A DNA stretch of 64,000 nucleotides from Malacoraja senta (Eukaryota): positions 10,852,001 to 10,916,000 of the forward strand of contig CM075994.1 of NCBI GenBank assembly GCA_038087875.1, in the 5' to 3' direction. The first letter of the stretch is position 1. Each line of letters begins with the position of its first letter. The notes beneath the pieces are model-generated. The model was not told the origin of the DNA and ran no database searches. It saw only the letters and a program-made list of their open reading frames with translations. Shown here piece after piece: positions 3,673 through 48,260 of this stretch. Both the position numbers and the translations under genes were made by a program.

Positions 3673-3872
3673 NNNNNNNNNNNNNNNNNNNNNNNNNNNN
3701 NNNNNNNNNNNNNNNNNNNNNNNNNNNNNNNNNNNNNNNNNNNNNNNNNNNNNNNNNNNNNNNNNNNNNNNNNNNNNNNNNNNNNNNNNNNNNNNNNNNN
3801 NNNNNNNNNNNNNNNNNNNNNNNNNNNNNNNNNNNNNNNNNNNNNNNNNNNNNNNNNNNNNNNNNNNNNNNN
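3673..3872. other. Assembly gap (N run)
   Basis: Run of N bases. Confidence 1.
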
Positions 3873-5645: not shown

Positions 5646-5999
5646 TGTGACCTTACCCTTGACGGCCGCCAGTGTGGGCACCATCTTCTCCAAGTCGGTT
5701 TTGTTGACCTTGAACTCGCCACATTTCTCCTTGCGTGCGGGGCTATGGGCATCCTCGTCAGCGAGCACCTTGCCGGCAACCTCCCCCAGCTGCACCTTGA
5801 CACCCGCTCCATTACTCCGCAGCGAGACGATGGAAGTGGGGTCCACGCGCAGCGCTTTAACACAGAGCCTTTGGTGCTGGAGCCTCTCCTCTTCCTGTGG
5901 GGTATAAGCAAGGTCGTAGGGTCAGTTTAGTTTAATGTCATCTGTACCAAGGTACAGTGAAAAGCTTTTGATGCGAGCTAAGCAGTCAGAGGACAAAGG

Positions 6000-9817: not shown

Positions 9818-10123
9818 ATTCAATAGCCCAGCGTCTACAGAAGTAGTATAATGCTCTCTGAAAATGTGTAGAGGTGGGACCACACACACACACGACAATC
9901 TGAAGCAGCGGCAGATACAAAAACTCCACCTGGCTAGTGTGTGTGTTCTGTTTTTACCTGCGGCACTGTGTGGTTATGCGATTCATTCATCTCTTTCACC
10001 ACAAACTTGTCTCCATCTGCAGAAAGATGGACTTTAATCATACACGGACACTTCATCTTGTTGGTTCTGAAAAAGACAGTGGGAGGTAGTGTGTAAGCAG
10101 CAGTCGATAGACACAAAATGCTG

Positions 10124-13264: not shown

Positions 13265-13778
13265 ACCACTCTAGACAATCCCAGCAGGTTTGTGGGTTAA
13301 TTTGCTTTTGTAAATTGCCCCTAGTGTGAAGAGAGTGGATGAGCAAGTGGGTTAACATAGAACTAGTGTGAATGGATGATTGATGGTCAGTGTGGACTCG
13401 GTGGGCCGAGAGGCCTGTTTCCATGCTGTAATTCTAAACAAAACTAACTTCCCAGCTCAACTTGTATAATTAAATTTAAAAGGATAAAACATCTTTAAAT
13501 CAGAGTTTAGGAAATAGGAGCAGGGGTATTCCATGTTTCATGTTATCCCACTTTCTCATCCACTCCCTACACATTCGGGACGATTTACAGAGGGCCAATT
13601 AACCAAGAAACCCGCACGTGTTTTGGATATTGGAGGAAACTGAAGCACACAGAAGAAACACAGCTGGTCACAGAGAGGACGTGCAAACTCCACACACGGA
13701 GCACACCGGAGGTCAGGATCGAACCGGGATCCCTGGTGTTGTGAGGCAGCGGCTCTACTAGCTGCGCCCCTGTGCTGC
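13265..13778. mobile_element. Two SINE fragments (plus 13265-13448, minus 13555-13778)
   Basis: Plus-strand tail GGACTCGGTGGGCCGAGAGGCCTGTTTCC; minus-strand head GGCAGCACAGGGGCGCAGCTAGTAG and GGTTCGATCC. Confidence 0.75.
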
Positions 13779-13880
13779 CCCTGCAAGTATTTCCTCACCT
13801 CTGGATTGGCCGTTTGCCGAATCCTTTGGTCTTGAATAACTTGCCGCCGTGAATGCACGCGTAGTCGATCTCGGCAAACT

Positions 13881-14008
13881 TCCGTGCAGATGTGGACCAG
13901 GCACTCGCGGACCATCGAGGCGCAGCGGCGACGGGCACCCAAGTGCTTGGGTGCCCGTCGCCGCTGTGCCTCGATGGTCTGCGAGTGCCTGGTCCACATC
14001 TGCACGGA
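13881..14008. repeat. 128-bp near-perfect palindrome (63-bp arms, 2-nt spacer, 2 mismatches)
   Basis: 13881-13943 is the reverse complement of 13946-14008 apart from two CpG/TpG differences. Confidence 0.97.
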
Positions 14009-14264
14009 GTTGTCCCTCTGGTAGCGCCAGTACTCCCGGTGCAGCTCACTGTAGCTCGAGAACTCTGCACCCACTCGGAAACCCGTCACCTGTGTCATGG
14101 CTACACGTGCATCAGATGGATTTGGCCGACTGGAGAGCGGGCACTGAGAATAGACCACATGCAGAAGATGCAGGTCAGACAAGGTAGAACGGATCAGAAC
14201 AGCTCATATATAGAGTTCAAGAATGGCACAGTGGCGCAACTGTAGAGTCACTGCCTCTAGGACA

Positions 14265-15722: not shown

Positions 15723-16276
15723 CATAGGTACATAGGTGATGTTTCGGGTCAGGATCCTTCCTCACAATGTTTGTAGGGAAGGAGGGAAGAAATCTGGAAG
15801 GGAGGAAGAACAGGGCAAAGAGTAGAAGGTAAGAGGTGAACAAGGACGGTTTTTGATAGGCAGATGGTTAGACAGAGGCCAGAGAAGGAAATAAGGCGTG
15901 AGACGAAAGGTTTAAAGAGTTCTACTGTGGTGTTGGGGTTGAGAGATGGAGGACAATTTGGAGACTGGGCAATTCTCAGTTTGCGAGCTCAGGATTTAGA
16001 CGGAACAGCAATCCCAGAAATTGGAAAGATTGCCATGCATTTACATGGCACTGGTGACCTAGCCGGGTTTGTGTGCAGATTGCAATTCCACAGGTTTAAG
16101 GGTTAGAGGTCAATTCCTGTGGGAATTCCCTGGATCAGAGATGAGATCCAATCATTAGGCTTGGGGGAGACAAGTTGCAATCCGAGGGATTGGGGACTGC
16201 GGGGGAGATCCAAGGGACCGATTCCTGGGTTTCCGGAAACAATTTCCTGAGATTTAAGGTTAGATTTGGGGAGATC

Positions 16277-16520
16277 TGGGATCAGAGATGGGGCATGTTC
16301 CAACTCCTGGGATCAGTGATGAGGTGGGATCCAATTCCTGGAATTAGAGATGGGCTATGGTCTAATCCCTGGCATCACCAATGGGGCAAACTCCAATCCC
16401 TGGGATCAGAGACAGGGTGGGGTCCATTCCCAGAGATTAGGATAAAACAGGCTCCAATCCCAGGGATCAGAGGACGGGTGGGGTCCAATCACTGGGATCA
16501 GAGACTGCAGTCTAATCCTT
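16277..16520. repeat. Degenerate ~31-bp minisatellite, ~8 copies
   Basis: CTGGGATCAG..N..TCCAATCC-type units start at ~16277, 16307, 16338, 16369, 16400, 16431, 16461 and 16492. Confidence 0.75.
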
Positions 16521-16584
16521 CGGTGCAATGGGAAGTGGGAATCATTGGGATCAGGGACAATCCCTGGGATACAAATTCCTGGAG

Positions 16585-17735
16585 TTGGAATAATAATTGA
16601 ACGAGTGCAGGTGGAGGAATAATTGTGTTTGAGGTGGGGGCATCCCTGGGTTAGATAGTGGAATTTCCTGGGGTTTGGATAGCACTGCCTGCATCAGAGC
16701 ACTGGTTGAATCTGAGGTAATCCCTGGGTAAGAGAGGATGGCAATTCCAGACATTAGAATAATCGCCCGTGAGCCGGGGGAATCCCCCAGTCTGGGCTGG
16801 GAGCATCTTGTAATTCTCAGCATTGGGAGGGAAATCATGAGATTGTGGATCAGTGTTGGGGGCAATCCTTGATTCAGGTAGGCTGCAAGTTCCTGGGATT
16901 GGGATAATCACCCATGTGTGGGTGGGGGGTAATTCCTTGGGTTGGGTTAGGGGTATCTTGCAATGCTGAGCATTGGGAGAGGGGACAATCGCTAATTTAG
17001 AAAGGATGGATATTTCTGGCATTGGAATAATAATTGCCCGTGTGCAGGTGGGGATAATTCAATCCCTGGGTTGGGGGTAGGGGCATCCTGCAAAGCTCAG
17101 CACTGTGAGGGACATCTACAGGATGGTACATCGGAATAAATCCCTGGTTTTGATGGATGAGAATTCCTGGGATTGGGATAATAATCGCCCTTGTTGCAGG
17201 TAGGGTGGTAATTCTCCATGTTTGCAATGAGAGCATCTTGCAAGGCCCCGCATACGGAGAAAGATCCCTGGGATGGGAGATCGGTGGCAACGCCTGATTT
17301 AGAAAGGATAGAAATTCCTGGCATTGGAATGATAACCACCCATGTGGGGTTGATGGGATAATTCCCCAGGTTTGGGGTAGGGGCATCGATCTTGCAATGT
17401 TCAACATTGGGATAGGGGATCGGGATGAATCCCTGATTTAGATAAGATACAAATTCATGAGATTGGGATAAAAAATACCAGTGTATGTGCGGGGAATAGG
17501 TACCTGGGTTTGGGGGAAGGGGCTTCTTCCAATGCTCAGTATTGGGATGCAAATCTGCGGGACAGTAGATCGGGATCAATCCCTGAATTAGGTTGATGCA
17601 AATTGCTGGGATTGGGATAAAATTGCTCGTGTGTGGGCGGGGTTAATGAATAGGGACGGGGGGCGGTTGCAGTCCGGTGCTTGCGGTGCAGGATTGGGAT
17701 GATCCCGTATTCCTGGGCACAGGGATGGGTTTCCC
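16585..17735. repeat. Degenerate ~145-150-bp G-rich tandem repeat, ~8 copies
   Basis: ATTGG(G/A)ATAA..CCC.TGTG..GGGCATC.TGCAA.GCT.AGCATTGGGA recurs at ~16585, 16753, 16898, 17021, 17172, 17323, 17462 and 17611. Confidence 0.7.
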
Positions 17736-18160
17736 GCGTGTTTGGCAGCGTCTGACGCGCAGCCGCGGTGCCGGCACTTTGTCGCCGCTCCGGGCCCAGG
17801 TTGTCGCTGCCGGCGCACGGGCGCCGCTCTCACAGCACCAGCGCCACCTACCGTTCAACTGTGAGCGGCCCCACTCTCTCTCTCTCCGTCTCCGCCCCCA
17901 GCGCCCGCCATCCGGGCCGCGGGCTCCCCGCCCGCTCGCGCTCCATACCACCTGCACATGCGCACTGACACGGCACGGCCGGACACCCTGCACATGCCCA
18001 CTGACACGGCCTGCACAAAGTGGGCTGCACATGCGCACTACCACGGCAACCAGTCGGCGCCGGGCACTTTCTCCCTCGCTTTGCATTGTGGGAGATATGG
18101 CCGCCATTGTTCTCCGCTCGCCGCGACCGCTGAAACTCGACGCCGAATCACTCCGTGGAG
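17640..18160. promoter_or_regulatory. CpG island; probable promoter and first exon of the minus-strand ZSWIM3-like gene
   Basis: High CpG density, repeated NRF1-like TGCACATGCGCA, YY1-like CCGCCATT, and a candidate minus-strand donor ACG|GTAGGT near 17851. Confidence 0.6.
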
Positions 18161-19619
18161 CAGGCAGCATCTCTGGATAGGAATTGGTTGACGTTTCGGG
18201 TCAAGACTTTTTAGACTCCCTCTCGTTTTAGTGTTTTTAGTTTAATTTAAAAATACAGCGCGGAAAAAGGACCTTCGGCCCACCGAGTCCACACCGACCA
18301 CCGATCACCCGTACACTAGTTCTATCCTACATACTAGGGACATAAATCGAGAGTCAAGAGTGTTTCATTCTCTGATGTCCCAGTTAAAACAATGAAATCC
18401 GTACTTGCAGCAGCACAACAGAATATGTAAACATAGTACTCTGTAAACAATGTTATAAACGAGAAAACAAATCAACATATATTTATATATGAATATATAA
18501 CTATATAAATACATATATGTGTGTGTGTGTATATATATATACACCCACACACAGAATTTCCCTCCTGGGATTTATAAAATTATATCGTATAGTATCGTGT
18601 GTGTGTAGGAAGGAACTGCAGATGCTGGTTTACACCGAAGATAGACACAAAAAGCTGTACTAACTCAAGATGTCAAACATAATCTCTGGACCAAAGGAAA
18701 ATATTACGTTTTGGGTTGGGTCTGATAAAGGGTCCTGCACACCTTTGGAATGGGAAGGAAACAAGTTCAATGAAACCCGGAAATAACCCATGCGATCAAA
18801 GGGAAAAGGAGCAAACTCCATACAGACAGCACCCATATTCAGGATCGATTCCGGGTCTCTGGCACTTTTAGGCAGCAACTTTACGGCCAATGTACTGCCC
18901 CAAAGTCTTGAAGTGAATTAAAACATAGCTGTTAAGGAGACGTAGTGTGACTTAGAGATTTAAGACTGAAAATAGATAGTTGATTTTTTTTTAGTAACCA
19001 AAGATATCAACGTTTAATTTTTTGCGTGTTGGAAATCAAGATATAGTGGCACAGCCAGAGAACTGTGTTCGATCCTGTCCTCGGGCACTGTCTGTGTTGA
19101 ATTTGCACATTCTCCCTGCAAGCGTGTGGGTTTTCTCCCACATCCTAAAGATGCATTGGCTTTGTAGGTTAATTTGTCTCTGTAAAATTGCCCCGCATGT
19201 GTAGGGAGTGGGTGAGGTAAGTGGGATAACATAGACCTAGTGTGAATGGGTGATCGATGGTCCGTAAACTTGGTGGGCCGAAAGGCCTATTTCCATGTTA
19301 AATATCTAATGGAATTATGCAAGAGACCAAAGTATGAAGATGTACTGGAAACCTAGAGGGCTGAAAGATTGGAGGAGGTGGCGTGAATGGCAAAATTCAT
19401 GTTTCTTTTTAATCTACCACGCAGTTCCTTTCCCCTCCTCCATCCACTCATCTCCCACCCTTCCCAATGCCAAGTCACCCATTTTTATCCCCAAATCCAT
19501 GCTCATGCTCATGCCACCCCTGGTTCTACACTTTATGCGCCATTTCCACCATTTTGTTTTCTGTGTTTATAACCAAAGATACTAGAGGATAAACATTGTT
19601 TATAATCTCCAACTCCCGC

Positions 19620-23842: not shown

Positions 23843-25245
23843 TAGAACAATACAGCACAAGAACAGACCCTTTGGGCCACAATGTCTGTGTCAAACATGA
23901 TGCCAAGACCATCTCTTGCTCACCTGTGTACTTAATCCATATCCCTCCATTCCTAGGACATTCATGTGCCCATCTAAAAGCCTCTTAAATGCCACTATAA
24001 TATCTGTGTCAATCCCCAACCTTGGCAGCGCATTCTAGGCACCAGGCATGTGCCATGAGTAATTACTCAGGATAGGCAGTCAGCCGGCTTTAAAAAAAAA
24101 TCTTAAACCGTGCATGCGCAGATTGTTCTCTCCGTAAAAAATAAAAAATAAGTAACAAAAACAATTCAGACGGAGAGCACTGCCAGAGGTGAGAGGGGAC
24201 CAGCAGAAGGGGCTGAAGTGGCAGTCGGTTCTGCTGTCGGGTCCCGGCGGCCGCTCGCAGTCACCCGAGCTGCTTCCTTCCTCGGAAGTGGCGGCCAGTT
24301 CTGCTGTCCGAGCCCGGCAGCCACCCGAGCCAATTCACTCCCCGGCCGCAATAAAACCATATAAAACCATATAGCAATGACAGCACGGAAACAGGCCATC
24401 TCGGCCCTTCTAGTCCATGCCAAAAACTTACTCTCACCTAGTCCCACCTGCACTATCACCTGCACTCAGCGTGGCAAGTGGGTTATTGACCCCAATCCCC
24501 TCCTTCACAACGCCAGACTCCCCAAACACTATGAAAGGAGCTCTCCCCCCACCCTGGGAAATACAGTATTTAAAAACATAAAGCACCAAAATATGTACTT
24601 ACCACGTTATTGGTACATTAAGTACATTCTTCACTCTTTGTTTCCTAAGATACTATTAAAATAATGGCAATCCATATTTGAACATCCAGCCAAGAAACTC
24701 GCTCTTCAGCAAAGGCAGAATTTGTGCTGCCTTTAGCTCCCCTTGAAACTGACGGCTTCAGGCAGCGTTGACGGCACGTGGGCTGCACAGACCTTCCCGT
24801 GTTACAAGTGCTGCGGATGAAAGGCACGGAGAATTATGCCTACCTAATAGATCGATCTCTTAGATAGGCATAATTCTCCCATGCCTTTACTATTTATATT
24901 TAATAATTGCCATTTCATAATTTTAGTCAGGGTAGGCAGTGCCTACCTTGCCTACCCTGACGGCACGTGCCTGCTAGGCACTCAACACCCTCTGTGTAAT
25001 AAAAATAATAATAAAAATAATAATTATCTTCCACATCTCATTCGAACTTTGCTACCTGCACCTTAAAGCTATGCCCTCTTGTATTAGATGTTTCCATCCT
25101 GCAGATTAAATACATTCTGACTCTCTCCAATCTATGCCTCTCATTTTATATACTTCTATCAGGTCTCGGTGAAACCTCTGTCGTTCGAGAGAAAACAATC
25201 TTAAGTCTGACTAACCTCTCCCTGTAGCTAATACCCCCTAACCCA
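23843..25245 (-). mobile_element. Old CR1 3' fragment split by the hAT insertion
   Basis: CR1 tail and C-terminal motifs on the minus strand on both sides of 24043-24973. Confidence 0.65.
24043..24973. mobile_element. Non-autonomous hAT-like DNA transposon
   Basis: TIRs CAGGCATGTGCC / GGCACGTGCCTG; perfect 8-bp TSD CTAGGCAC at 24035-24042 and 24974-24981. Confidence 0.88.
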
Positions 25246-27224: not shown

Positions 27225-30200
27225 ATAATAATAATAATAATAATAATAATAACTTTATTTATAAAGCACTTTAAACAACCACAGTTGCCACAAAGTGCTG
27301 TACATGAGAAATCACGAACAAAAAGCTATTACAAACAATTAAAACCCATTACAAACCGTAAAACGAAGGACTATAAAAAACACACAAAAAATTAAAAGAC
27401 ATTAAAAGCACTAAAAACAGGGGCAATGCCTCAGCCAGTGTCGAAAGCCAAAGAATAAAAATATGTTTTTAGGGAGGATTTGAAGATGGACAGTGAGGGG
27501 GCCTGTCTGATGTGCAGCGGCAAGGTGTTCCAGAGTGCCGGAGCAGCAACAGAAAAAGCTCTATCCCCTCTGAGCTTCCGCTTAGACCTTGGTACCTCAA
27601 GGAGCAGCTGATCAGCTGACCTGAGGCACCGGGCAGGAGCATATAGGTGGAGCAGCTCAGAGAGGTAAGGCGGGGCGAGCCCATTCAAGGATTTAAAAAC
27701 AAATAAAAGAATTTTGAAATGAACTCGAAAGTGCACTGGGAGCCAGTGTAGGGAGGCCAAAATTGGCGTAATGTGCTCCTTCTTTCGAGTTCCAGTCAAA
27801 AGGCGAGCGGCAGCATTTTGAACAAGCTGGAGGCGAGCCAATGAAGCTCGTGCGACTCCAGAGTAGAGTGCGTTACAGTAATCCAGCCTAGATGTAATAA
27901 AGGCATGGATTACTGTTTCAAAATGCTCCCGCTCGAGAATGGGCTTCACCTTTGCCAGCTTCCTTAGGTGAAAGAAGCTGGACTTAACCACCGCGCCTAT
28001 TTGTTTGTCTAGTTTAAAATCACCGTCCATCCTAAAACCCAGGTTCAAGACGGTTGGCTTTACAGACAATGCCAGTGGACCCAAATCAACAAAGGGAGGT
28101 TCACGGCAGCCATTGGGGCCAAACAAAATCACCTCTGTCTTCTCTTCATTAAGTCCCAGAAAGTTTAAGGCCATCCAGGACTTAATGTCCTCAAGACAAG
28201 ACAGAAGTGATTTTAGAGAATAGTCTTCTTCTTTCCTGAGTGGCATATATAACTGGCTATCATCTGCATAAAAGTGAAAGGAGATGCCATGCCTTCTTAA
28301 AATTGAGCCCAGAGGAAGTAGGTATAAGGAGAAGAGCAGGGGCCCTAAAATTGAGCCCTGTGGAACCCCATATACCAAGGGAGTGGAGGAGGATTCAAAG
28401 CCAGCAAGGCTTACACGCATGGTTCTATCTGCCAGATAGGACCTGAACCATTCCAGGGCACTGCCACAAATGCCCACTTGGTGCTGTAGTCTGGAAATTA
28501 ATATTCCATGGTCCACTGTATCGAAGGCGGCAGATAGGTCCAGCAAGACAAGAACCACATAATTACCTGAGTCGTTTGCCAGGAGGATGTCGTTGAAGAC
28601 CCTTAGCAGAGCCGACTCTGTGCTATGCATAGCCTTGAATCCAGACTGGAAAACTTCCCGAATATTGTGCTCATCCAGGAAGAGTTTCAGCTGCGCATAA
28701 ACTACCTTCTCCATGATCTTAGAAATAAAAGGCAACTTGGAGATCGGCCTAAAATTGGCCAGATCAGTTTGATCCAGGCCTGGTTTTTTAAGTAGTGGTT
28801 GCACTACAGCATGTTTAAAATTTATGGGGACAACCCCAGAACACAAGCTACTGTTTATAATGGCGAGAACCGACTGCCCTATACTCGGGAAAACCTCTTT
28901 AAAAAGAAGAGGAGGGACAGCATCACAGGGGGAACCCGACGGCTTAATATGCCTAACCACATCCTCTAGTCCCGACAATGTCAGAGGCACAAACTTTTCA
29001 AATGCCACCAGGCATGGGGCCGGAACAGAGGGGTCAGAGGCAGGAGCTGAGATGAGAGCCCTTATAGAAACGACCTTATTAATAAAGAAGTGCAGGAAGT
29101 CATTGCACAAATCGGACGATGCTTCCAAGCAAACAGGCTGTGGGGCATTTAAAACAGAATCAATAGTTTTGAATAATACGCGTGGGTCGTGACGCTTAGC
29201 CACTATTATATTAGACAGGTAATATCTTTTGGCCTCTTTAACAGTATTTTGGTAATTTCGCCAGCTGTCCTTTAGGATTTGCGATGAAACCTGCAGCCTG
29301 TCCTTCTTCCACTTTCGTTCAGCTCTGCGACAATCCCGTCGAGCTGTACGTGTTGCGTCACTAAACCAGGGCTCGGGTTTAGCTCTGGGCTGCAAAGTTT
29401 TTAAAGGAGCCACAGAGTCCAGTATAGTTGTGCAGGAGGAGTGGAACCAAGAACTAATCTCCTCCGTACCAAGGGGAGTGGACGCAGAGGGGGCACAGAG
29501 CTGATCGAAAGCAGCAGAGAATTGGCCAGCAGCAGAAGGGTTAAAGGACCGACAGCGCCGAGCAGACGATACAGGTCTAACTGCAGCACTGGAAAAACCA
29601 ACATCAAACAGTACAGGCATGTGATCAGAAAACACACTATCACAGACCTCCAAGTTTAATACAGGCAAGCCATAGGAAAGAACAAGGTCCAATGTATGTC
29701 CATGTTCGTGTGTGGGACCAGACACACACTGCACAAAATTAAAAGAATCAATAAGACTTAAAAAGTCCTTCGCCAACGGCTTATCGGGACAGCACACGTG
29801 TATGTTAAAATCCCCAACCACAAGGACACGGTCATAGTTGGGCATAATCCCAGCCAGAAACTCAGAAAAATCAGACACAAAGTCCTTGTGGTATTTGGGG
29901 GGTCGGTAGATGACAGCACAAAGCACCGTGTCGGAGCGACCCACCTCAAATAAAGTTGCCTCAAAGCTGGAGAACGTTGATAATGCAGTGCACTGTTTGC
30001 ATTTAAAAGTGCTTTTATAAATGACTGCAATTCCACCTCCACGGCCCGACATCCGTGGCGAGTTGAAATAAGAGCAGCCCGCCAGCAGAAGTTCAGTAAA
30101 AGCGCTGCACTCACCAGGACCGATCCAAGTCTCTGTCACACAGAGGAAGTCCAGGGCCCGGGAGCAGAAGAAGTCCCTCAAAATAAAAGTCTTGTTTGCC

Positions 30201-31025
30201 AGCGATCTGGCGTTCACCAGGCCAACCCGGGAAGGGGATGGACTCTTTAGGTCTGCAGATCGGGGAGCCCGGGACAGTGTCCGCAGGTTCCGGATATTCA
30301 CCCCGCGATGGCGGAGTCGAGGAGAGCAGGGGGAGCGGAGCTGGTCCCGCTGCAGCCTCCGATCGTAAGCGGGTAGGGGGGGAGGGGGGGAGAAAGCAAC
30401 CTGAAGCAGCCGGCACACCCGGCGACCGCCCCCGTCCCCTCCGAGGCGGCGTGTCCGGCCAGTTTTCCGGGCCGTAGCAGGCGGGCAGCCCTCTACACCT
30501 TCCGGGAGGAGTTGGTCCGGTGGCAGCTGAGAAGCACCAGGCTGGAGACCCCGGAAGCGCGGGCTCACCTTGAGGCTGCCCCCCTCCCCTCCGAGGCGGC
30601 GTGTCCGGGCAACTCTCCAGGCCGCAGCAGGCAGGCAGCGCTCTGTACCCTCTGGGAGGAGATGGTCCGGTGGCAGCTGAAAAGCACCGGGCAGGAGACC
30701 CCGAAGGCGAGGCCCACGAAGAAGTCGCTGACAAGGGAACCCGGGCGCACCCAGTCTAAAACTCACCAGTCGACCGCCGCGCTTTCCACGGCGACGGCGA
30801 CGCTTCCTTCGAGGCAAGGCCCAGTCCAGGTGAGTCGAGGTTCCGGATAAGAACGGTGGCAGGGTATTATATTCAAACGCACCGACAAACGCACCGACAT
30901 TATGTCGTAGATCTTGGAGAGATTGACGGTCGTACACCAGCAGAGACTTTACCTGTATAGTGCCAAAAAACACCAAACACAAACAGAGCGACAGACGAGC
31001 AGCCACACACACCGGCGCCATCTTA
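27225..31025 (-). mobile_element. Full-length single-ORF L2-clade LINE (family A)
   Basis: (ATT)n tail at 27225-27251, L2-type 3' end GTACAGCACTTTGTGGCAACTGTGGTTGTTTAAAGTGCTTTATAAATAAAG, and 5' end AAGATGGCG. Confidence 0.93.
27431..31021 (-). CDS. L2 ORF: APE endonuclease plus reverse transcriptase, 1196 aa, uninterrupted
   Basis: APE motifs NARSL, TETW, IYRPP, GDFN, TLDL, SDH. RT motifs [35 protein letters not shown]2 C-terminus SRLDYCN, LQLVQNAAAR, LHWLP. Confidence 0.95.
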   Translation of the reverse strand: MAPVCVAARLSLCLCLVFFGTIQVKSLLVYDRQSLQDLRHNVGAFVGAFEYNTLPPFLSGTSTHLDWALPRRKRRRRRGKRGGRLVSFRLGAPGFPCQRLLRGPRLRGLLPGAFQLPPDHLLPEGTERCLPAAAWRVARTRRLGGEGGSLKVSPRFRGLQPGASQLPPDQLLPEGVEGCPPATARKTGRTRRLGGDGGGRRVCRLLQVAFSPPPPLPAYDRRLQRDQLRSPCSPRLRHRGVNIRNLRTLSRAPRSADLKSPSPSRVGLVNARSLANKTFILRDFFCSRALDFLCVTETWIGPGECSAFTELLLAGCSYFNSPRMSGRGGGIAVIYKSTFKCKQCTALSTFSSFEATLFEVGRSDTVLCAVIYRPPKYHKDFVSDFSEFLAGIMPNYDRVLVVGDFNIHVCCPDKPLAKDFLSLIDSFNFVQCVSGPTHEHGHTLDLVLSYGLPVLNLEVCDSVFSDHMPVLFDVGFSSAAVRPVSSARRCRSFNPSAAGQFSAAFDQLCAPSASTPLGTEEISSWFHSSCTTILDSVAPLKTLQPRAKPEPWFSDATRTARRDCRRAERKWKKDRLQVSSQILKDSWRNYQNTVKEAKRYYLSNIIVAKRHDPRVLFKTIDSVLNAPQPVCLEASSDLCNDFLHFFINKVVSIRALISAPASDPSVPAPCLVAFEKFVPLTLSGLEDVVRHIKPSGSPCDAVPPLLFKEVFPSIGQSVLAIINSSLCSGVVPINFKHAVVQPLLKKPGLDQTDLANFRPISKLPFISKIMEKVVYAQLKLFLDEHNIREVFQSGFKAMHSTESALLRVFNDILLANDSGNYVVLVLLDLSAAFDTVDHGILISRLQHQVGICGSALEWFRSYLADRTMRVSLAGFESSSTPLVYGVPQGSILGPLLFSLYLLPLGSILRRHGISFHFYADDSQLYMPLRKEEDYSLKSLLSCLEDIKSWMALNFLGLNEEKTEVILFGPNGCREPPFVDLGPLALSVKPTVLNLGFRMDGDFKLDKQIGAVVKSSFFHLRKLAKVKPILEREHFETVIHAFITSRLDYCNALYSGVARASLARLQLVQNAAARLLTGTRKKEHITPILASLHWLPVHFRVHFKILLFVFKSLNGLAPPYLSELLHLYAPARCLRSADQLLLEVPRSKRKLRGDRAFSVAAPALWNTLPLHIRQAPSLSIFKSSLKTYFYSLAFDTG

Positions 31026-31410
31026 GTTCCTCATTTTCTATCTCCCTCTCTCCTGAAATAGTGAGGCGCCATTTGCTCTCTTCCAATTTGTGTGAACCAT
31101 TCTGCAACCTACGGAATTTTGAAAGACGATGAACAGTGCGCCTGCCTGAAAGGCTACGGATCAAGTTCTGGAATTTGGACAGCTATTTTCCAGCCGGCAT
31201 GGACATCATCATCTATGTCATCAACTCTACGATTCCTTGAAGCTGTCAAGACGTCTGATTCACACAACACAGTGGAAACCTGGAGCACTCGCCCCAAAAG
31301 GCTTTTTGGATGCTGTGGGTCAGTTGGTACTTTCACTGTCATGTTAGATCATAATTTTGGTGGGAGGGTTAATGAGGGATTCGGAGCAAATGTGATCAAT
31401 TATCTGAGCA

Positions 31411-36499: not shown

Positions 36500-39400
36500 T
36501 CAACGGGCGTGTGTCGGGGGAAAGGTGAGCCTCCAATTAAGCAAGATCAGTCTCCGGGCTAACAAGGTTGTAAAAGCTAGGACACGTTTCACCGCAACAG
36601 AGAGGTTGGTGTTGGGAGGGGTACCGAAAATGGCTGACATTGGGTTTGGAGGAATAGTCTGGTCGTAAGCTCTGCTTCTCAATTCGAAAGCACTCCTCCA
36701 AAAGGCTGCTAGCTTAGGGCAAGACCAAAACATATGGCTATGGTTGGCGGGAGATTGATTACATCTGTTGCAGGTGTCCCTAACAGCTGGGTACATTCTA
36801 GCTAATCTTGCATTTGTGTGGTGGACTTTGTAAAGGACTTTGCATTGGATTAGGCCATGACGGGCACATATGGAGGAAGAATGGATCAAATCCAAGGCAG
36901 AGTCCCATTGCTGGTCTGTTAGTTTCGTATTCAGCTCTCCCTCCCACGCATCTTTTAATGAGGTATGAGGTTTCAATAAAACCGACCCTAGCAAATTATA
37001 CAAAATAGAGATGCATTTCTTCCGGTTGGGATCTAAAGCTAAGATGGTATCAGTCGGGGTTTCAAGAGGGCGATTTGGGAAATAGGGGAATGTCTTCTTC
37101 ACAAAATCCCTAATCTGGAAAAACCGAAAAAGGTGAGAGTTTGGGAGGTTGTAGTTAGACGAGAGCTCCACGAAAGACGAAAAGATGCCATCCTTGTATA
37201 GGTTTTTGATACTACTGATACCGTTGCTATGCCAGGTTTTGAATGTGTGGTCTGTACTTGAAGGTTTAAAAATGTGATTTTTAAGCAGTGGGGTCAAGAT
37301 GGAAGGGCCTTGTAAACCGAGGTTTTTCCTGAATTGACGCCATATCTTGAGCGAAAGGGACGCAATTGGGCCTGCACCCACAGATGTTATAGGAAGGGGG
37401 AGTTGGGAGCATAGGACAGACCGCAACGGGAGACGTGAACTCGCCTTTTCCATGTATACCCAGGTTGGTAGGTGGTCGCAATCATCATTCATCCAATACA
37501 GGAGTTTTTGCAAGTTAGCTGCCCAATAGTATCGCCTAAAGTCAGGAAGTGCCAAACCGACATCACTCTTACGAGACTGCAGTATCGCCTTTCAGGATTC
37601 TAGCCGGTTTGCTACCCCATAAAAATTTAGATATTGTCCTTTCTAATTTATCAAAAAAAGATTTAGTGATAAGTATAGGGACGTGCTGGAAAAGATACAG
37701 GAATTTGGGTAGGATAACCATCTTAACCAGATTTATATGGCCCACGAGGGATAGCGGTAAAACTGACCAGCGGTCAAAATCTCTTTCGGCTTTCTCAACC
37801 AGAGGCAGAAAGTTTGTGCGGAACATATCAGATAAGGGTATTGTGATAAAAACGCCGAGATAGCGAAACCCATCCTCTGCCCATTTGAATGAGGTTAAAG
37901 AGCGAGGGAGCTGCTTAGCCAATGAGTTAATCGGTAATAGCTCACTCTTTTGGTAGTTAAGTTTATAACCAGAATACGCACCAAACCGTTCTAAAATATT
38001 CATAATCACAGGGAGAGAACTGACTGGGTTCGAGATGTACAGGAGCAGTTCGTCCGCATACAATGAGACTTTATGAGTTGTATCAAACCGTGTAATACCT
38101 TTAAAGCCCTTCTCTGCGCGTAACCAGACCGCCAGGGGTTCTATCGCGACATCAAACAGGAGTGGTGATAACGGGCAACCCTGTCTGGTACCTCTCTGAA
38201 GGGTGAAGTGGGGCGACAGTATGTCGTTTGTTTGTACTGAGGCCACCGGGGACAAGTATAATAGACTGACCCAGAGAATAAAACTGTTACCGAGGCCAAA
38301 CCTGTCCATCGCCTCATATAGGTACCTCCACTCGACCCTGTCGAAGGTTTTTTCGGCGTCGAGGGAGACCACTATCTCCGGGGTCTCACTACTCGAAGAG
38401 TGGATGATGTTAAGGAGACTAGTATTGTGGGAAGACTGTCGGCCTGGTATAAACCCTGTTTGATCTAACGAGATAATAGAGGGCATCACTCGTTGAAGAC
38501 GGAGCGCAAGGGTTTTAGAAAGGATTTTGAGGTCCACATTCAGGAGTGAGATTGGTCTATAGCTACTACAAAGCAGGGGATCTTTTTCCTTTTTAAGAAT
38601 TAGGGAGATAGTAGCCCACGACAAGGTGGGCGGTAGGCGACGATGTAAAAACGCCTCATTGTACATATCTCTCAGGACTGGTGCGAGGAGATCAGAGAAA
38701 GCTTTATAATATACTACAGAGAAGCCGTCAGGGCTGGGTGACTTTCCGCTTTGCAGCGATGTGATGGCTGCTTGGACCTCAGCTATAGTTATGGGACCGC
38801 CCAAGTCTCTCATGGCTTCATCGTCAATTCGGGGAAACGTCATACTACTGAACATGTCACCTGCAGTGGGAGGACAGTCAGAAGTGTATAGTTCAGTGTA
38901 GAATTTAACAAATGCTTCATTAATTCTAAGAGGATCAGTATGAATCTCCCCTAAGCTGGATCTAATGGCTGGAATTAGCCGTGAAGTCGCGTCTGTTCTG
39001 GCCTGATAGGCCAAAAGCTTCCCAGCTTTATCCCCAGATTCAAAAAAGTGTTGCCTAGATTTAAGCAGTCGTAGCTTGGCTTTATTAATGGACATGAGGT
39101 CAAAGTCTGTTTGTAGCCTAAGGCGTTCTCTATAGAGGTTAGGGTTTGGGTCAGATGCATATTTGTCATCAAAGTCCTTTATTTTTTGTAACAGATCTGC
39201 CGTTTGGAACGTCTCGGTTCTTTTCAGGTTGGAGACAAAAGAGATGAGTTGGCCCCTAATATAGGCTTTTGAAGCTTCCCAGAGTATACCTCTTTCTATG
39301 TCCGGCGACTCATTCAGCTCAAAATATAAGGTGTTTTGGGAGTGCAGGAATTGCATGTAGTGAGCCTCTGCTAGTAATGAGGAGTTGAACCTCCACTTAA

Positions 39401-40145
39401 AGGGGTTAGTTCGTTTACGAAAATGAAGATCGAGGGAGGTCGCAGCATGATCTGATATTACGATGCTATGGTACACACTGGATTTGATTTTGGAAAGCAG
39501 TCTGTTATCTAAGAGAAAGAAGTCTATACGAGTATAGGTACGATGTACGTGGGAAAAAAATGAAAATAATTTAGTCGTGGGGAATGTGAGTCTCCATGGG
39601 TCTGTGAGCCCCAGTTGTTTGGCAAGAACATGCAGAGTCTTACCTGATTTAGTTAAAGTAGAGGCTTTGTTCGAAGATCTATCCAGTATAGGGTCTTGGA
39701 CCAGATTAAAATCTCCACCCACAATGACATGGTGATTTTCAATATTTGGGAGAGATGTAAAAAATTTGGTTATAAATGAGCTGTCATCCCAATTGGGTCC
39801 ATAAATGCTGGCCAATATGACAGGTGTGTCTTGCAGTTTTACCGACACCATGACAAAGCGACCAGCAGGATCTTCCACAATTTTCTGTGGTTCGAACATA
39901 ATGTTCTTACGAATCAGGATAGCAGTGCCCCTAGCCCTATTATTAAATTTCGAGTGAAATAATTGACTAATCCAGCCTCTCTTAAGCCGTGTTACCTCTC
40001 TGTTGCGAAGGTGGGTCTCTTGAATAAAGAATATATCGCCTTTGAGCTGTTGCAAATGGGCCAAGATCCTAACAGTTTTAGTAGGACTTCCCATCCCTCT
40101 CACGTTCCACGAGACAAATCTAAGAGTGTCGTTTGTGTCGGCCAT
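36500..40145 (-). pseudogene. L1 ORF2 (APE, RT, C-terminal zinc knuckle), frameshift near 37560
   Basis: SWNVRG, QETH, GGDFN, SDH, YRPISLLN, RGTRQGCPLSP, LYADE (YADD mutated), CNRC..HMFWSC. Confidence 0.9.
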
Positions 40146-42009
40146 ACTTAGCTATATCCAAGCGAATGGGTAGTGCGCTGTACTGCAAAACGAGACGGAA
40201 GAGCGCATCGAAGCCAGCTGCCGAGAGTGGGGATGTGGAGGGGGGGGGGGGGGAGGAGTAATTAAAAAAAGAAAAATATATATAAAACAAAATAAAATGA
40301 AAAAAAAAAACGTACACACACAACAAACAAGTGAAACACATATCATTTAACCATCTTTCAAACCTGAGTCTCCGGACCTGAGATCCCCCATGTCTCAACT
40401 GAACCTTGAGTGCCCATTGCACCAAGGTGCGTTGTCCTCGCATCCGCATGGAGATATCCGATCTTAACTCCCAATATTTCCACCTCCCAAAGCGACAGAA
40501 TCACTCAGTGTCCATAAGGTAACATAAAATAAAATAAGTATAGTAATAGTAATAATGACAATGGTAATAATAATTTGAAAAATAGAAAGTAGAAATAAAG
40601 TAAGATAAACATACATAGATAAATATAAAGTTAAAATAATAGCCATAGTAGTTGCACTGCCAATACCATTGCTAACACTAATGGTAATGATAGTAATGAT
40701 GATAGTCATAATAAGACAAAGCAAATTAACAAAATGGTGATACTAAATAATAATAATAATAACTTTATTTATAGAGCACTTTAAAAACAACCACAGTTGC
40801 AACAAAGTGCTGTACATGACTAATCATGGACAAGAAATTATTACATAACAATAAAAACATTAAACAAAAGAGTAAAAACAATAAAATTAAAAACATTAAA
40901 AGCACTTAAAACAGGAGCAAAGTCTCAAGCAGTGTCAAAAGCCAAGGAATATAAATGTGTTTTAATACTGGTTTTGAAGATGGACAGTGAGGGGGCCTGT
41001 CTGATGTGCAACGGCAGGGTGTTCCAGAGTGCCGGAGCAGCAACAGAGAAGGCTCTATCCCCTCTGAGCTTCCGCTTAGACCTCGGTACCTCCAGGAGCA
41101 GCTGATCAGCTGACCTGAGGCACCGGGCAGGAGCGTATGGGTGGAGCAGTTCAGAGAGGTAAGGCGGGCGAGCCCATTTAGAGATTTAAAAGCAAATAAA
41201 AGAATTTTAAAATGAACTCGAAAGTGCACTGGGAGCCAGTGGAGGGAGGCCAGAATTGCCGTTATGTGCTCCCTCTTTCGAGTTCCAGTTAAAAGGCGAG
41301 CAGCAGCATTTTGAACCAACTGGAGACGAGCCAGTGAAGATCGTGCAACTCCAAAATAGAGTGCGTTACAGTAATCCAGCCTAGATGTAATAAAGGCATT
41401 GATTACTGTTTCAAAATGCTGCCGCTCGAGAATGGGCTTCACCTTTGCCAGCTTCCTTAGGTGAAAGAAGCTGGACTTAACCACCGTGCCCATTTGATGA
41501 TCTAATAGTAAGATTAAACGAGAACTTACCAGTTTGAAGTTTGATCTTTATTTTATGAGGAGTAACGTTGAGGGATTACGTGAAGAAGACCCCGTCCAGC
41601 GGCACACGCGTCAATCTTTCAAAGCAGCGGAGTGACAATCACAGACGATAATTACTGAAGTATGATAGTAAGATGCATAAAGACTTAGAACTACCAGCTT
41701 GATCCTTTTATGAGGGTGGAAGCGGAGGGCACGTAATCCCTCAATGTTACTCCTCATAAAATAAAGATCAAACTTCAAACTGGTAAGTTCCCGTTTAATC
41801 TTACTATTTTACTTCGGAGTCACGTGAGTGACTACGTGAAGATTTCAAAGCTCTGTGATTTCACACCGTGGATTCAAATCCAGGTGTTCACTGCATCGAT
41901 TGACTCTATTTGAGTAAGCACAATCAACAATGCATAACCACAACATTTGAATGTAATCAGTTAATGGTTTTATTTATTTTAATAAAAGTAACAAAATTAG
42001 GCCCATTTA

Positions 42010-42997
42010 TTATAATGGGGGATTTAATACTGTATCCAGCACGGCATCACCAAACACTCTGAGATCTTTAATCTCCTTATGGTAATACTTGTGAAACATC
42101 TGTTCACTTGCCCGTCCTGCGGCCGCGAGAATAAGGTCTATTGTCTGAATCCCTGGCCGCTGATGTTGATGCCGCCCTGGTGGAATGAGATTTAAATTTA
42201 TCAGTATCAATACCTGAATATCTCAACACCTGTTTCAACCATCGTGAAATTGTTTGTGTTGACACTTTCTTATGAGGCTTTTTATGACTAATAAAAAATG
42301 CCAATTCGGTGCCTCTTAAAACTTTTGTTGTTTCTATGTAACATTTCACATATGTTACCACACACAGTCGTGGATCTGTAGGATATGCTAAAAATTCCAA
42401 CTTGCATCCTGTGAACTCAGGTCTACTTTGCTTCAGTAAATCATAGACATAGAATGTCACGGCATTTGGCCCTACTTTCATTCTATCAATTCTGAGTTTC
42501 TGTAATGTTTGACTCTCTGCGCTGAAACTAATGCCATGAGCATAACCAATTTCATGGTGATTTTGGATAATGACAGTTTCAACTGGATTCCAATTCCTTA
42601 GCAACATCAGTACATCTTTTACATTCCAAATTTCTGTATACCTGGGTCTGGGAGGATTATAGTTGAAAATTCCTTTCATAAACCTACAGACCCAAGGATG
42701 TGCTCCTATTGGAGTTTGTTCTGATTCACTGCTTAAATATGCAGAGAGTGCACTTCGTGCAGTATTAATTGCACTATAACTTAATTTCAATTCATAGTGT
42801 AGAGTTGAAAGAAACTCTATTACATCTGAAATTTCTGCTGTGTTATATGCAATATTCTTTCCTGAACAAAACACCTCCCATTTCTTTATATAGGAAATGT
42901 ACTGCTTCTGGGTACTATTCCTCCTGGCTGCTGTCATAACATCCACCGTACGGTCTGATAATCCTTTTCCAAGATATGGCCTTCTTAGAATCTGCAA
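42010..42997 (-). pseudogene. DIRS tyrosine recombinase, frameshifted
   Basis: SAINTARSALS, LCVVTYVKCY, TISRWLK, FKSHSTRAASTS, AAGR..F.KYY. Confidence 0.88.
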
Positions 42998-44990
42998 ATC
43001 AACAAACCAATACGATTATGTAAAGGATGTGATTCATTAGTCACAGGGTGTACAAGCAGTTTAATCTGCTTTGGAATAACCATAAGGGTTTTTTTGATCA
43101 TTTTTAACACCAGTGGGTACCATACCTGTGTAGGCCAATCTGGTACTACCAAAATCCCTGAGGCTGAATCTTGTTTAATTTTCTGTATGCATTTGTGGAT
43201 TAAACAAAATGGTGGAAAAGCATACAGAAAAATACCACCCCAATGTAGCGAGAAAGCATCCACTGCTACTGCACCAGGATCAGGTTCCCACGACACATAC
43301 TTAGGCAATTGGTGGTTCAGTCTTGATGCAAATAAATCAATCTCTGGCATTCCAAATTATGTTATAATTTGTGTAAATATTTCCTGATTTAACATCCATT
43401 CTGTATTATTAAATTTACGTGATCTTTTGTCTGCAATTGTGTTAAATTTTCCTGGTAAATATATTGCTGACAGCCAAATTTTTCTGGCAATACACCAGGT
43501 CCAAATTTCATTTGCCAATCTATCACATGATTCTGATTTGATACCACCCATGTGATTTATGTATGCTACAGCTGTAGTATTGTCAACCTGTACCTAAACA
43601 TGCACACTTCCCATATTAATGCAATAAGCTTTAAGGCCATGAAATGCTCCTAATAGCTCTAGCTAATTGATCCCCTGTTTTTCCAGCAAAGGTACTTCAT
43701 TCACATTCCACCTACCTCCACAGCTGGAAATCATGTTAGTAGCGCCCCATCCAAGAGCACTTGCATCAGTCTGTAGAGTGACGGATGGTATTTCTACCAG
43801 AACCTTTCTTGAAGCATTAGAGACTTTGTTAATCCACCATTCTATTTCAGTAATGGATCCAGTTGTTAATTTCATGGGCCGGTCAAAATGCCCTGTATTT
43901 ATTTTTAAGGCTTGTACCTTAGCCCTCTGTAAACATTGATAATGCAATGGTCCAAATGTGACAGCTGGAAACGCAGCAATTAATTTGCCCAGCAAAAGCT
44001 TGCCACTTCTCTAATTGAAGGTGTGTCCTCGTTTATGAGTTTGATGCAACCTTCAATTAACTGCAGCCTTTTCTCTTTTGGCAAAGTGATTACCATGTGT
44101 TCCGAGTTGATTGTGAACCCTAGGTAATGAATTTTCTTGCTTGGTAACAATTTTGATTTTTGTAGGTGAATAATGAAACCCATTTTCTCAAAAATGAACT
44201 TGACCCTGGATACTGATAATTTTGCAGCAGCCAAAGTGTCCCCTACAATCAAAATATCGTCCAAATAAGCCATTAGTACATGGCCCTCAGCTCTTAGAAG
44301 AGCTAAAATTGGTTTGAGTAATTTAGTGAATAATCTTGGTGCTGAAGTCAGGCCATTGGGCAATGCTTTAAATTGCCACAACTGACTCGTCCATCTAAAT
44401 TTCAAATACCTTTGATCATTACGATGCATTGCCACAGAGTAATATGCATCTTGCAGATCTATGCTCGCCATGTAGTAATTTTTTATGATCAGCTGAATGG
44501 CATTAGTAAATGTTTCCATTTTGAAATGTTTGTATTGTACATAAAGGTTAAGATTTGTCAGATCCAAAATGATTCTACATCCACCATCCTTTTTTGTTCT
44601 AGGAAAAATATTTGATACAAATTGATGGTGTTGTTCTACTGACTTCTCTATTACCCCCTTATTGGTTAAAGTTTCTAATTCTCCTTTGATCAACGTATTC
44701 TCTTCTTTTGAGAAAATCCGTGACCAGCTTGAATTTTGCTGCCTTGGAGGATCCAAGTGTGAATAGAACTCAATTTTGAATCCTACAATGCTGTTTAGAA
44801 TAAATGAATCATTTGTTATTAACTGCCATTCTTTTAGGAAGAATCGTAACCTTCCCCCTATTTGTGAATGTGAAACATTTGTATTCCTTACCAGACCAGG
44901 ACCCCCTACCTCGGGTTTGCCTCCGGCAATTGTTGTCCCCTTCTGGTAGGCACATTGTAACCTCCACGTATCCCCGGTGCAGCACGCCAA
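42985..44990 (-). pseudogene. DIRS RT-RNase H-N6-adenine methyltransferase-like ORF, frameshifted
   Basis: IGGRLRFF, HFKMET, IDLQDAY, AYLDDIL, TDASALGWGA, IDLFASRLN, DAFSLHW, YAFPPF. Confidence 0.9.
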
Positions 44991-45184
44991 CGTGTATACG
45001 AGAATGATCGGCTTGTTCCTTCTCCAGCACCATCATTCCGCCTGTAGGGATACTGCCTTCGCACCGCTCTGCTCAGCATTGGTGGTCGCATCATCATACC
45101 ACTCAGGTTTTTTGACTCTTCATTCAAGTCCTTTAGTTTCTTTGCTAGATTTTCTCCAAACAGCAGATTAGGCATTTGTATGTT

Positions 45185-45969
45185 TTAGATAGATTTTAGA
45201 TATTTATTTGTTGTCGTTTGAACCTAAGTTCAAACGAAATTCTGTTTCTGCAGTCATACAAACAATTAAAAAAGACACAACACAATTTACACAAACATCC
45301 ATCACAGTGAGTCTCCTCCTCACTGTGATGGAAGGCAAAGTCTTATCTCACCCCTGCACTCCATTCTCCTCCCGATGTCAGAGTCAAAGCCCCCGGCGGG
45401 CAACTGTAAACATATCCCGCGGCCACCAAAGCCGCGCTGGGCGATGCCAGACCCCGCTCCGGGTCTTGATGTTGTAGCCCCCGGTAGCGCCAGCAAGTCT
45501 CACGGCCACCAATGCCGCACCAGGCGATGCCAGACGCCGCTCCAGGTCATCTTCAACCCCGCAACTCGGGCGGGAGTAGCTGCCGTTGCGGGAGCTCCGA
45601 AAAGCGGTCTCCCACCATGGACCCGCGGGCTCCCGATGTTACCGTCCACCAGTCCCGCGGCTGAAGCTTCCGAATCTCCGGGGTCGGGTCGCAGCCGCGC
45701 GCCACCACAGCCCCTCCCGCTCCGAAGTCGGCCAGCTCCACGATGGTGAGAAGTCCGCAGGCTCCGCGACTGGAGCCCCAGGTCGTTCCGGTTGGAGGCC
45801 GCTCCACGGTGCTAGGCCCCAACGACAACGGAGACCCGACAGAGAAAGGTCGGTTCTCCCGTGCAGGGAAAAGATTTTAAAAGTTTCCCCCTCCCTACCC
45901 CCCGCTGACCCACACATACCCCGTTAAAAAAAAACCCCACTAAAAACAAAACTCAAACGAAACAAAAAA
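45185..45969 (-). mobile_element. ~790-bp GC-rich non-autonomous retroposon-like insertion in DIRS gag
   Basis: Absent from the second DIRS copy, which reads ..CTGCAAACCATGCAATATACAAATGCC. ATGTT is present on both flanks (45180-45184, 45970-45974). Minus-strand AATAAA is followed by a (TCTA)-like tail. Confidence 0.7.
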
Positions 45970-48260
45970 ATGTTGGTTGGTTTGCAGAGCCCTGCATACT
46001 TAGGATGAATATTTGGTCTTATTGCATTTTTACGAATACAATTTATTATAAAATGCGCACCACACATCAGTGCTAAAGCATCTTGTTGTGAATCTGATAC
46101 AAACTCATCATCCAATCCTCTGGCAAATGCCGTGATGCCTGACCCCAGCAATTTCAATACATGTTGCAATTTCAATTCTTGTGAGCGTAGACCAATGCTC
46201 AAATAACCCCATATCAAGTTATTCACTGTTGGAACTGTGAGCAATTCACAATTCTCCGGGGCTCATACTGTTTCATAGTCTCATCCATAGTTACTTCCTG
46301 GAGCTGATGGGAGAGTAAATAATTTATAGTCATTGCTATTTCATCCCTCAAAGGTTCCCCTTTTATTCTAGGAACAGCAAACTTTTGTGCTAGTCCAGGA
46401 ACTTTCAGCTCTGATAACAGGCTCTCATCCTCATAGAATTCATCTTCTGAGTCTAGATGTTCGTCTTCAGGTTGAGTAACTTCAGGATCCCCTAGTTCAG
46501 GTAAATCTATGCCAGTATCTCCTTACGTAAGCTCTGCTGTAGGCCCACGGGTAGGCAGCTCTGTTCCAGGTGCTGCTGGCGCTGGCTCCATTCTAGGCCA
46601 ACGCTTCATAATTTTCCCTTTAGGAACTTTCAGTGCTGGCACATAAGTACGTGAGTACTGTCTTTTTTTAGACATTTCTGGTACTGGCTCTTCAGTAGGC
46701 CAGCACATATACTGCCTTTTTTCAGGCATTTCGGGCACTGGCTCTTCTGTAGGCCAACCACTGTAATAACTTTGCACAGTCATTTCTGATGGCTCTCCTG
46801 TAGGCCACCCTTGTGCTTGTCCCAACCAAGGCACACCCTGTGCTGTATCCTCCATTGGCCAACACCGACCTGCTTCCTCCTTCCTTCTTTGTAAATCATT
46901 TTCCCCATCAGGAGCTCTAAACTGGCGACCCTTGCAGCCATAACATTTTCTGCTGCAGGAGGGTATACCTCCGGGTCTGACTCATCCGAGTCTACAGGTC
47001 GGGCCGACTTTTGTCCTGCCTTGCGCCCCGCCGCCGGCGGTTTAACGGCACATTCGACCGTAACGGGAGTAGATGGCTTCGATGCCACTGCCTACTCTTC
47101 CTGACGCCTGCTACCCTTAGCATCGGGGGTTTTACCTGCGGTGCGTCCCTGGCCTCTCCTTCCTCTACGCCCTTTCTCCATTCTGAGTTGTGTGGACTCT
47201 GCCAACACGTCTGAGCGGGAAGAAAAGCGCCCTGTAAGTGAAAACGAAACCACTTACCTTATCCAATTTTACTTTAAATTTACATTTACTCACCGTCTGG
47301 AGGAGCTCCTGCTCCTCCACACACGGTCATGAACGCTATGCGTCTGATCGATAATGACGCGTGTGCGGCTGGACGGGGTCTTCTTCACGTAGTCACTCAC
47401 GTGACTCCGAAGTAAAATTTAAAATCACTGTCCATCCTAAAACCTAGGTTCAAAACTGTTGGCTTCACGTACCGTGCCAGTGGACCCAAGTCAACAAGGG
47501 GAGGTTCACGGCAGCCATTGGGGCCAAACAATATCACCTCTGTCTTCTTTTCATTAAATCCTAGAAAGTTTAGGGCCATCCAGGACTTAATGTCCTCAAG
47601 ACATGACAGAAGTGATTTGACAGAAAAGGCAGGTTAACGTATAAGCCTGGAGTTAAGTGGAGCCAGAATAGCTTCCTTTGGTGTTACATAGTATGTCTTA
47701 AAATCGACAAAGTATAAAGAGAGAGTTAGCGTTGGAAAAATTAGCAAATTACAAACTGGGCTCTCGGATTAAAGCGCAGGGCAAAAGAACATCAATTAAG
47801 TATTGTTAAACAAAAAAGCTATAAAATAAGATTGGTATAACACAGCCTTGGCGGTAATGAGCTCTTATCAGCCCCAGACAGTCCATTAGGAAGACTAGTG
47901 TAAACAAACTAGCCGAGTGCTGACAGCGTTAGCGGCCAGCTGCTAAGAACAAGAAGGCAGAGACCAAATCACGAACCACAAAGTGGGTCCCTTAAGCCCA
48001 GTTTTATAGCATGTGCTGATGAAGGGCCTTTCAAGTATGATTACACATAGACAATGTAAGGAAAAGTTGGTATAAGATATTCACGAATCATGGTGATTTC
48101 TTACCAGCCTCATACATTTCGAAACAGGGGTCTAGTATAATCAGCAATGCTGAACGCTAGCAATAGCTAGTTGTTAGGAACAGTCAAGCTAAAATTAGTC
48201 CATGTAACCGTAGATTAACCGGGCCCCTGTGTCACTCGGATATAGACGTACTGAACGAAG

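Follow-up and report, generated by a model that had tools for sequence, protein, structure and literature searches.

A 63-bp inverted repeat lies inside a protein-coding exon of the window, that is, the whole 64,000-nucleotide stretch of Malacoraja senta DNA analyzed here, and it raises the question of whether such a structure is a genuine mutation, by what route it arose, and whether it has become anything other than a lesion in a gene.

A long inverted repeat in an assembled exon

The repeat is present in the assembled sequence as first described, with arms at 13881 to 13943 and 13946 to 14008 that are 97% complementary and 2 nt apart. The two mismatches between the arms fall at the position pairs 13909/13980 and 13922/13967, and at both sites the inverted arm carries CpG where the coding arm carries TpG, as had been read. 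A repeat of 63 bp is far beyond chance. The minus-strand RNA is predicted to fold with a free energy of -147.5 kcal/mol (z = -19.9), with none of 200 shuffled sequences as stable, and its minimum free energy structure consists of a 63-bp stem closed by a 4-nt loop. A hairpin scan of the 64-kb window (arms of at least 20 nt, a loop of at most 20 nt, and at most 3 mismatches) returned four sites, with arms of 63, 26, 20, and 20 nt, the 63-nt site being alone at that size. Of the 63 paired positions, the outermost 2 belong to the native sequence as microhomology, which leaves 13883 to 13944 (62 nt) as the new letters; 59 of the 61 positions from 13883 to 13943 pair with 14006 to 13946.

Table 1. 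Features of the interrupted gene and of the inverted repeat (positions are those of the window)
Feature	Positions	Strand	Remarks
CpG-rich upstream stretch, candidate promoter	17501..18750		observed/expected 0.79-1.14; composition; assignment to the ZSWIM1/3-like gene putative
Hairpin-bearing exon, first part of ZSWIM3_N	13799..14143	-	AG acceptor above 14143, ATG 14098, GT donor below 13799
Coding (source) arm, codons 31-51 of the ZSWIM1/3-like exon	13946..14008	-	TpG at 13967 and 13980 versus CpG in the other arm
Hairpin centre	13943..13946		GCGC (self-complementary) in intact copies, here TG for CG at 13944-13945; putative CpG decay
New segment, 62 nt	13883..13944		reverse complement of 13945-14006; replaces 19 nt of the intact exon
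Outer junction	13874..13889	+	2-nt exact microhomology (13881-13882)
Next exon	9958..10066	-	shifted frame ends at a premature TAA (10036-10034), 76 nt ahead of the donor; private residues M95 and H99
Third coding exon, open	5656..5894	-	76/79 residues identical to best skate homologues
200-N assembly gap	3673..3872		1.8 kb beyond exon 3, ~10 kb from the hairpin

The repeat interrupts a ZSWIM1/3-like gene

The gene hit by the repeat is a skate ZSWIM1/3-like gene on the minus strand, and the repeat falls in its first coding exon (Table 1). When the exon is read through, it gives a match to PF21599 (ZSWIM3_N) with an E value of 7.4e-6 and 26.9 bits, just under the cut-off of 27.8, and the 13 longer homologues found all belong to the ZSWIM1/3-like proteins; 12 come from named sharks, rays, and skates. 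The coding parts in the window (14098 to 13799, 10066 to 9958, and 5894 to 5656) have canonical splice sites, and the high identity of exon 3 is to Amblyraja and Leucoraja proteins, which marks the window as skate DNA. Full-length members of the family also carry the ZSWIM1/3 RNase H-like domain together with weak MULE and FAR1 hits; a reading of the locus as an active transposon (MULE) was set aside in view of the spliced exons and the long full-length homologues in sharks and rays. No match to the RNase H-like and SWIM exons was found past exon 3 within the window, where the 200-N gap and the window end lie. The locus resembles chondrichthyan ZSWIM1/ZSWIM3-like genes (MULE-related; PF21599 and PF21056) in its three exons, which match at 76 to 95% identity, and in its ZSWIM3_N hit, but unlike those genes it has a frameshifted exon 1 and shows no RNase H-like and SWIM exons within the window. 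The interval that separates the hairpin exon from the CpG-rich stretch contains a degenerate 31-nt tandem repeat at 16124 to 16735.

The preliminary description held that the repeat breaks the gene, and the reading frames bear this out. Residue K51 ends at 13946 and the motif KFAEIDY starts at 13881, with 64 nt between them, and exon 2 in the shifted frame provides ten sense codons followed by TAA at 10036 to 10034, both as previously stated. With the net shift of +43, the second half of the ZSWIM3_N domain is lost. Nonsense-mediated decay (NMD) usually follows a 50- to 55-nt rule, and with the stop 76 nt before the next junction the transcript should be open to decay.

Several other elements were seen in the window. 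A RING-finger open reading frame at 350 to 604 on the plus strand (PF15227, E value of 3e-11), which we take to be a TRIM gene, has an early stop and looks decayed. Inverted copies at 42100 to 47400 (minus strand) and 59865 to 64000 (plus strand), 80 to 98% complementary in pieces, encode reverse transcriptase and integrase SAM-like domains and presumably belong to a DIRS/Ngaro-like tyrosine-recombinase retroelement. A young-looking LINE with an open frame of 1,199 codons and endonuclease and reverse transcriptase domains lies at 27431 to 31030 (minus strand), and a second, broken LINE lies at 36500 to 40151. A second zero-loop near-palindrome, with 26-nt arms and up to 3 mismatches, is found at 24828 to 24879 and is possibly another template-switch scar.

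Intact copies define the replaced segment

The contigs of 4 of 24 public runs were mapped against 13760 to 14260; two of these runs, X1 and X2, come from one study of organism A, which may not be the species of the window (0.66 and 0.64 of sampled words, respectively), and X3 comes from organism B. An intact join was present in three of the four mapped runs. In X2 (two contigs) and X3 (one contig), 13882 is joined to 13945 via 19 other letters, and in X1 (one contig) 13889 is joined to 13945 via 12 letters, so that with the intact contigs as the reference, 62 nt stand in the place of 19 nt, a net gain of 43. At the protein level, the linker between the RAPK-like and KFAE-like motifs has 7 residues in all 45 homologous domain copies, which come from 41 of 47 fetched proteins, and reads RPMNDAL in 40 of them. 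A comparison with intact copies had been called for to delimit the replaced segment, and the contigs of X1 to X3 and the 7-residue linker place it at 19 nt.

Two intact linker variants occur in X2, and up to 11 contigs cover one site in X1; such contigs cannot tell alleles from paralogues, and simplified contigs drop rare variants. At window positions 14093 and 14121, all X1 contigs differ from the window, whereas X2 has contigs identical to it, and either the copy content may differ between individuals or the records may have been filtered.

A probable origin by template switching

The proposed template-switch origin is supported by the geometry, by the replaced segment, and by microhomology at both junctions. 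All four switch points lie within 125 nt. At the outer junction, the letters before the switch compare as AACTC with AACTTC, and 4 of the 8 letters after it match the intact sequence. Single inverted repeats are described as the majority outcome of short template switches, and the events in apes have a median copied length of 12 and a maximum of 128 (PMC7954356); the 62 nt copied here are inside that range and far above its median. As in the four-point model of short-range template switching (Walker et al. 2021, PMC7954356; Loytynoja and Goldman 2017, cited there), a local reverse-complement copy replaces ancestral bases, and the skate event gains length, as do the 65% of ape events reported with a net gain. 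It differs from the ape events described in that source by its place in the long tail of copied lengths, in a coding exon, and in a cartilaginous fish.

A germline delins in one member of the amplified skate ZSWIM1/3-like family would be accounted for by one out-and-back template switch at a replication fork. After leaving its template at one microhomology, the polymerase would have copied some 62 nt of the neighboring exon sequence in reverse and returned at the second microhomology, with 19 nt skipped; the four-point order (3-2-1-4 or 1-4-3-2) is that of events leaving a single inverted repeat. Initially, the product would probably have been a zero-loop palindrome centred on GCGC, and a perfect one, because the 2-nt spacer at the centre, passed over in the preliminary description, is probably a third decayed CpG. 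Three methyl-CpG deaminations would subsequently have produced the two A-C mismatches and the 2-nt loop, and with intact copies covering the function, the allele would be neutral and the hairpin a by-product. This account as a whole, comprising a real fork template-switch delins, a decayed palindrome, and a neutral dead copy, is the one we consider reasonably probable.

The same product could also have been reached through double-strand-break repair, by snap-back or trans synthesis-dependent microhomology-mediated end joining (SD-MMEJ), leaving a templated inverted insertion and a 19-nt deletion. A delins with microhomology at both ends is in keeping with that route, SD-MMEJ is reported to use short inverted primer repeats to produce templated insertions in inverted orientation (PMC5728401), and by eye the intact exon has a 5-bp inverted repeat, CGGGC/GCCCG with an 8-nt loop, at the site. 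To judge from the sequence, however, an intrastrand hairpin could not have primed a zero-loop centre, and a start from the 5-bp stem would have left the loop single, whereas the loop is duplicated in the skate sequence. Templated insertions made by SD-MMEJ mostly fall short of 62 nt. Fork switching and break repair cannot be told apart from the junctions, but the zero-loop centre appears to suit an interstrand switch better, and break repair is judged an unlikely source.

A genuine allele or an artefact

The hairpin junctions were found in none of the joints or pieces listed from the four mapped runs over 13760 to 14260 (88% of X1 and 86% of X3 being read); the repeat is confirmed as a property of the assembled sequence, with junctions unmatched in the contigs of independent runs. 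Depth matches the intact form: in X2 and X3, the depth of the bin at 13879 to 13895 is that of the intact contigs ending at 13882, and in X1 and X2, the depth of the bin at 13947 to 13963 is that of the intact-join contigs alone (93.2 × 16/17 and 206 × 16/17, respectively). The private letter of the window at 14029 is likewise absent from the contigs of X1, X2, and X3, and therefore the broken copy as a whole is not represented in those runs. Contigs that lack the junctions thus show neither the presence nor the absence of the hairpin. Run X24, whose kind is not given, had 0 contigs on 13760 to 14260. The hairpin-coded peptide was in none of the 13 longer protein hits or the 1 near-length hit (6 candidates), and exact look-ups found it in 0 of 3 cases, both being weak searches.

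The template-switch delins is most likely real. The alternative is a library or assembly artefact, in which a chimeric molecule was turned into the consensus in a poorly covered multi-copy region. The family is indeed multi-copy, and the 200-N gap lies 10 kb off, in the kind of region where assemblies are weakest, but an artefact would require two switches on one molecule, the second going back to the original strand 19 nt further along. Moreover, the strands of a single molecule ought to be exact complements of each other, whereas the arms differ by CpG-specific transitions, and the broken copy has private changes outside the hairpin as well. An artefact is distinctly improbable. Sequencing error would not favor CpG transitions, which are the sole kind of difference between the arms, and a CpG loss on the opposite strand is found at 14029, outside them.

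CpG losses and the age of the event

The mismatches had been taken as the mark of an aged event. The CpG differences do make a simple read artefact less likely, but they could also stem from damage at the event or from a different donor, and the idea of an aged event is only partly borne out. The three differences (two mismatches and the centre) are all C>T, on one strand, and within 37 nt. Four of the 35 CpG sites in 13777 to 14209 are lost, 3 of them, on one strand, among the 9 sites that belong to the coding arm or the centre (post hoc hypergeometric P = 0.044), and flanks of 106, 87, and 116 nt have 0 differences from X2 contigs. Slow, clock-like aging does not neatly fit this clustering together with the clean flanks; slow decay, damage at the event, and copying off another copy can all be fitted to the pattern.

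If the inverted piece was copied from a paralogue or homologue after the coding arm had lost its CpGs, the mismatches would predate the event, which might then be very young. The native side bears all three differences, 8 of 8 CpGs are preserved in the inverted arm, and the same residue changes are met elsewhere in the family, R52H at the centre in an unbroken Rhinoraja paralogue (P0030) and R24W in P0032 and P0037. An ectopic donor, however, need not have given the exactly local junction at the centre, and a one-sided pattern among only three changes is not rare by chance; such a donor seems highly unlikely, and decay of a locally copied palindrome is the reading retained here.

A multi-copy family and a probable dead copy

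The ZSWIM1/3-like family is multi-copy in skates. A Rhinoraja cluster (P0006) has 24 members, compared with 2 to 5 in the clusters for two ray queries, although isoforms inflate such counts; the 15 members listed are all from Rhinoraja longicauda and have accessions of their own, spread over one 41-Mb sequence and a number of small scaffolds. The family looks strongly amplified in this species. Amblyraja and Leucoraja have several N-terminal domain variants, some with two domains in tandem. Four models from Amblyraja radiata and Leucoraja erinacea (P0002, P0018, P0022, and P0023) either contain two tandem ZSWIM3_N domains through duplication of exons 1 and 2 or are annotation-fused neighbors. 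No published account of ZSWIM1/3-like amplification in skates was found in the open-licence literature searched.

Residues Q40, M95, and H99 of the broken copy occur in none of the 45 homologous domain copies and W24 occurs in 2, whereas position 40 is Arg in all 45. A dead copy appears to be the best reading of the broken gene, because its other changes hit invariant residues and the family is multi-copy.

The hairpin as a hypothetical source of small RNA

The suggestion that the hairpin is a proto-miRNA is not upheld. The stem has 63 bp and the loop 4 nt, against a stem of about 35 bp and an apical loop of at least 10 nt in canonical precursors as described in PMC10710096, and long miRNA hairpins are stated to be absent in vertebrates (PMC12553114). 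A search of Rfam gave only subthreshold hits, the best being mir-666 with 27.7 bits against a gathering threshold of 70 (E value of 0.088). The de novo miRNA hairpins attributed to template switching by Monttinen et al. (2023, PMC10710096) likewise come from one event that creates a near-perfect stem in a potentially transcribed unit; those reported there passed a filter for 30- to 55-nt stems, and 81 of 99 intragenic cases were intronic and on the sense strand, whereas the skate hairpin has 63 bp and a 4-nt loop and is exonic and gene breaking. It had also been pointed out that both mismatches are A-C pairs in the minus-strand RNA, of a kind favored by ADARs. The pairs are as described, but they carry no weight as evidence of an editing preference, because any plus-strand C>T change at a CpG in one arm gives A-C on the minus-strand RNA.

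The earlier point that the inverted arm is antisense to intact paralogues holds, as the ancestral letters survive in that arm (all 45 copies have Arg40) and intact copies exist, and the locus is a long inverted repeat homologous to an intact gene, as is typical of hairpin RNA (hpRNA) loci. By analogy, the broken copy might be transcribed in the germline and its hairpin diced to siRNAs that repress the amplified intact paralogues, which would make it a vertebrate counterpart, at birth, of hpRNA suppressors. The stem is predicted to form inside the whole exon (mean pair probability of 0.94, with 58 of 63 positions above 0.9), the splice sites and the upstream CpG-rich stretch are kept along with the ancestral letters of the inverted arm, and ZSWIM1/3 expression is reported as gonadal or maternal in human and Xenopus (PMC10236294). 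Fly hpRNAs are described as arising as inverted exon fragments beside amplified targets (PMC10317233), and the Drosophila examples Nmy, Tmy, Dsim-hp58, and hp88 in that account resemble the skate locus in being inverted exon fragments of a would-be target from an amplified family. Those hpRNAs, however, are defined by Dicer-2-dependent siRNAs and derepression of their targets, whereas the skate hairpin resembles them in sequence structure. Vertebrate genomes have a single, miRNA-adapted Dicer, unlike the fly setting, and according to PMC9645528 this enzyme appears dedicated to miRNAs, with closed-state residues conserved across vertebrates. Inverted-repeat endo-siRNA loci of the mouse oocyte (Optn) are a precedent, in a vertebrate, for siRNAs derived from transcribed inverted repeats, but efficient RNAi there needs a special isoform, the oocyte-specific DicerO of the mouse. 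The skate stem, in addition, lies buried within the exon, 135 nt from its start, and lacks a free end, the premature stop is placed so as to expose the transcript to NMD, and the coding arm is decaying. A silencing role is very improbable, and a neutral by-product of a dead copy remains the preferred reading of the hairpin.

Implications

The locus is a long and clean instance of a known mutation class in which both switch points can be read, and it comes from a group in which events of this kind have received little study. If the hairpin were diced, it would represent an inverted-duplication route from a target gene to a silencing RNA, directed against an amplified family, in a vertebrate other than the mouse. 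A more useful lead may lie in the amplification of ZSWIM1/3-like genes in skates.
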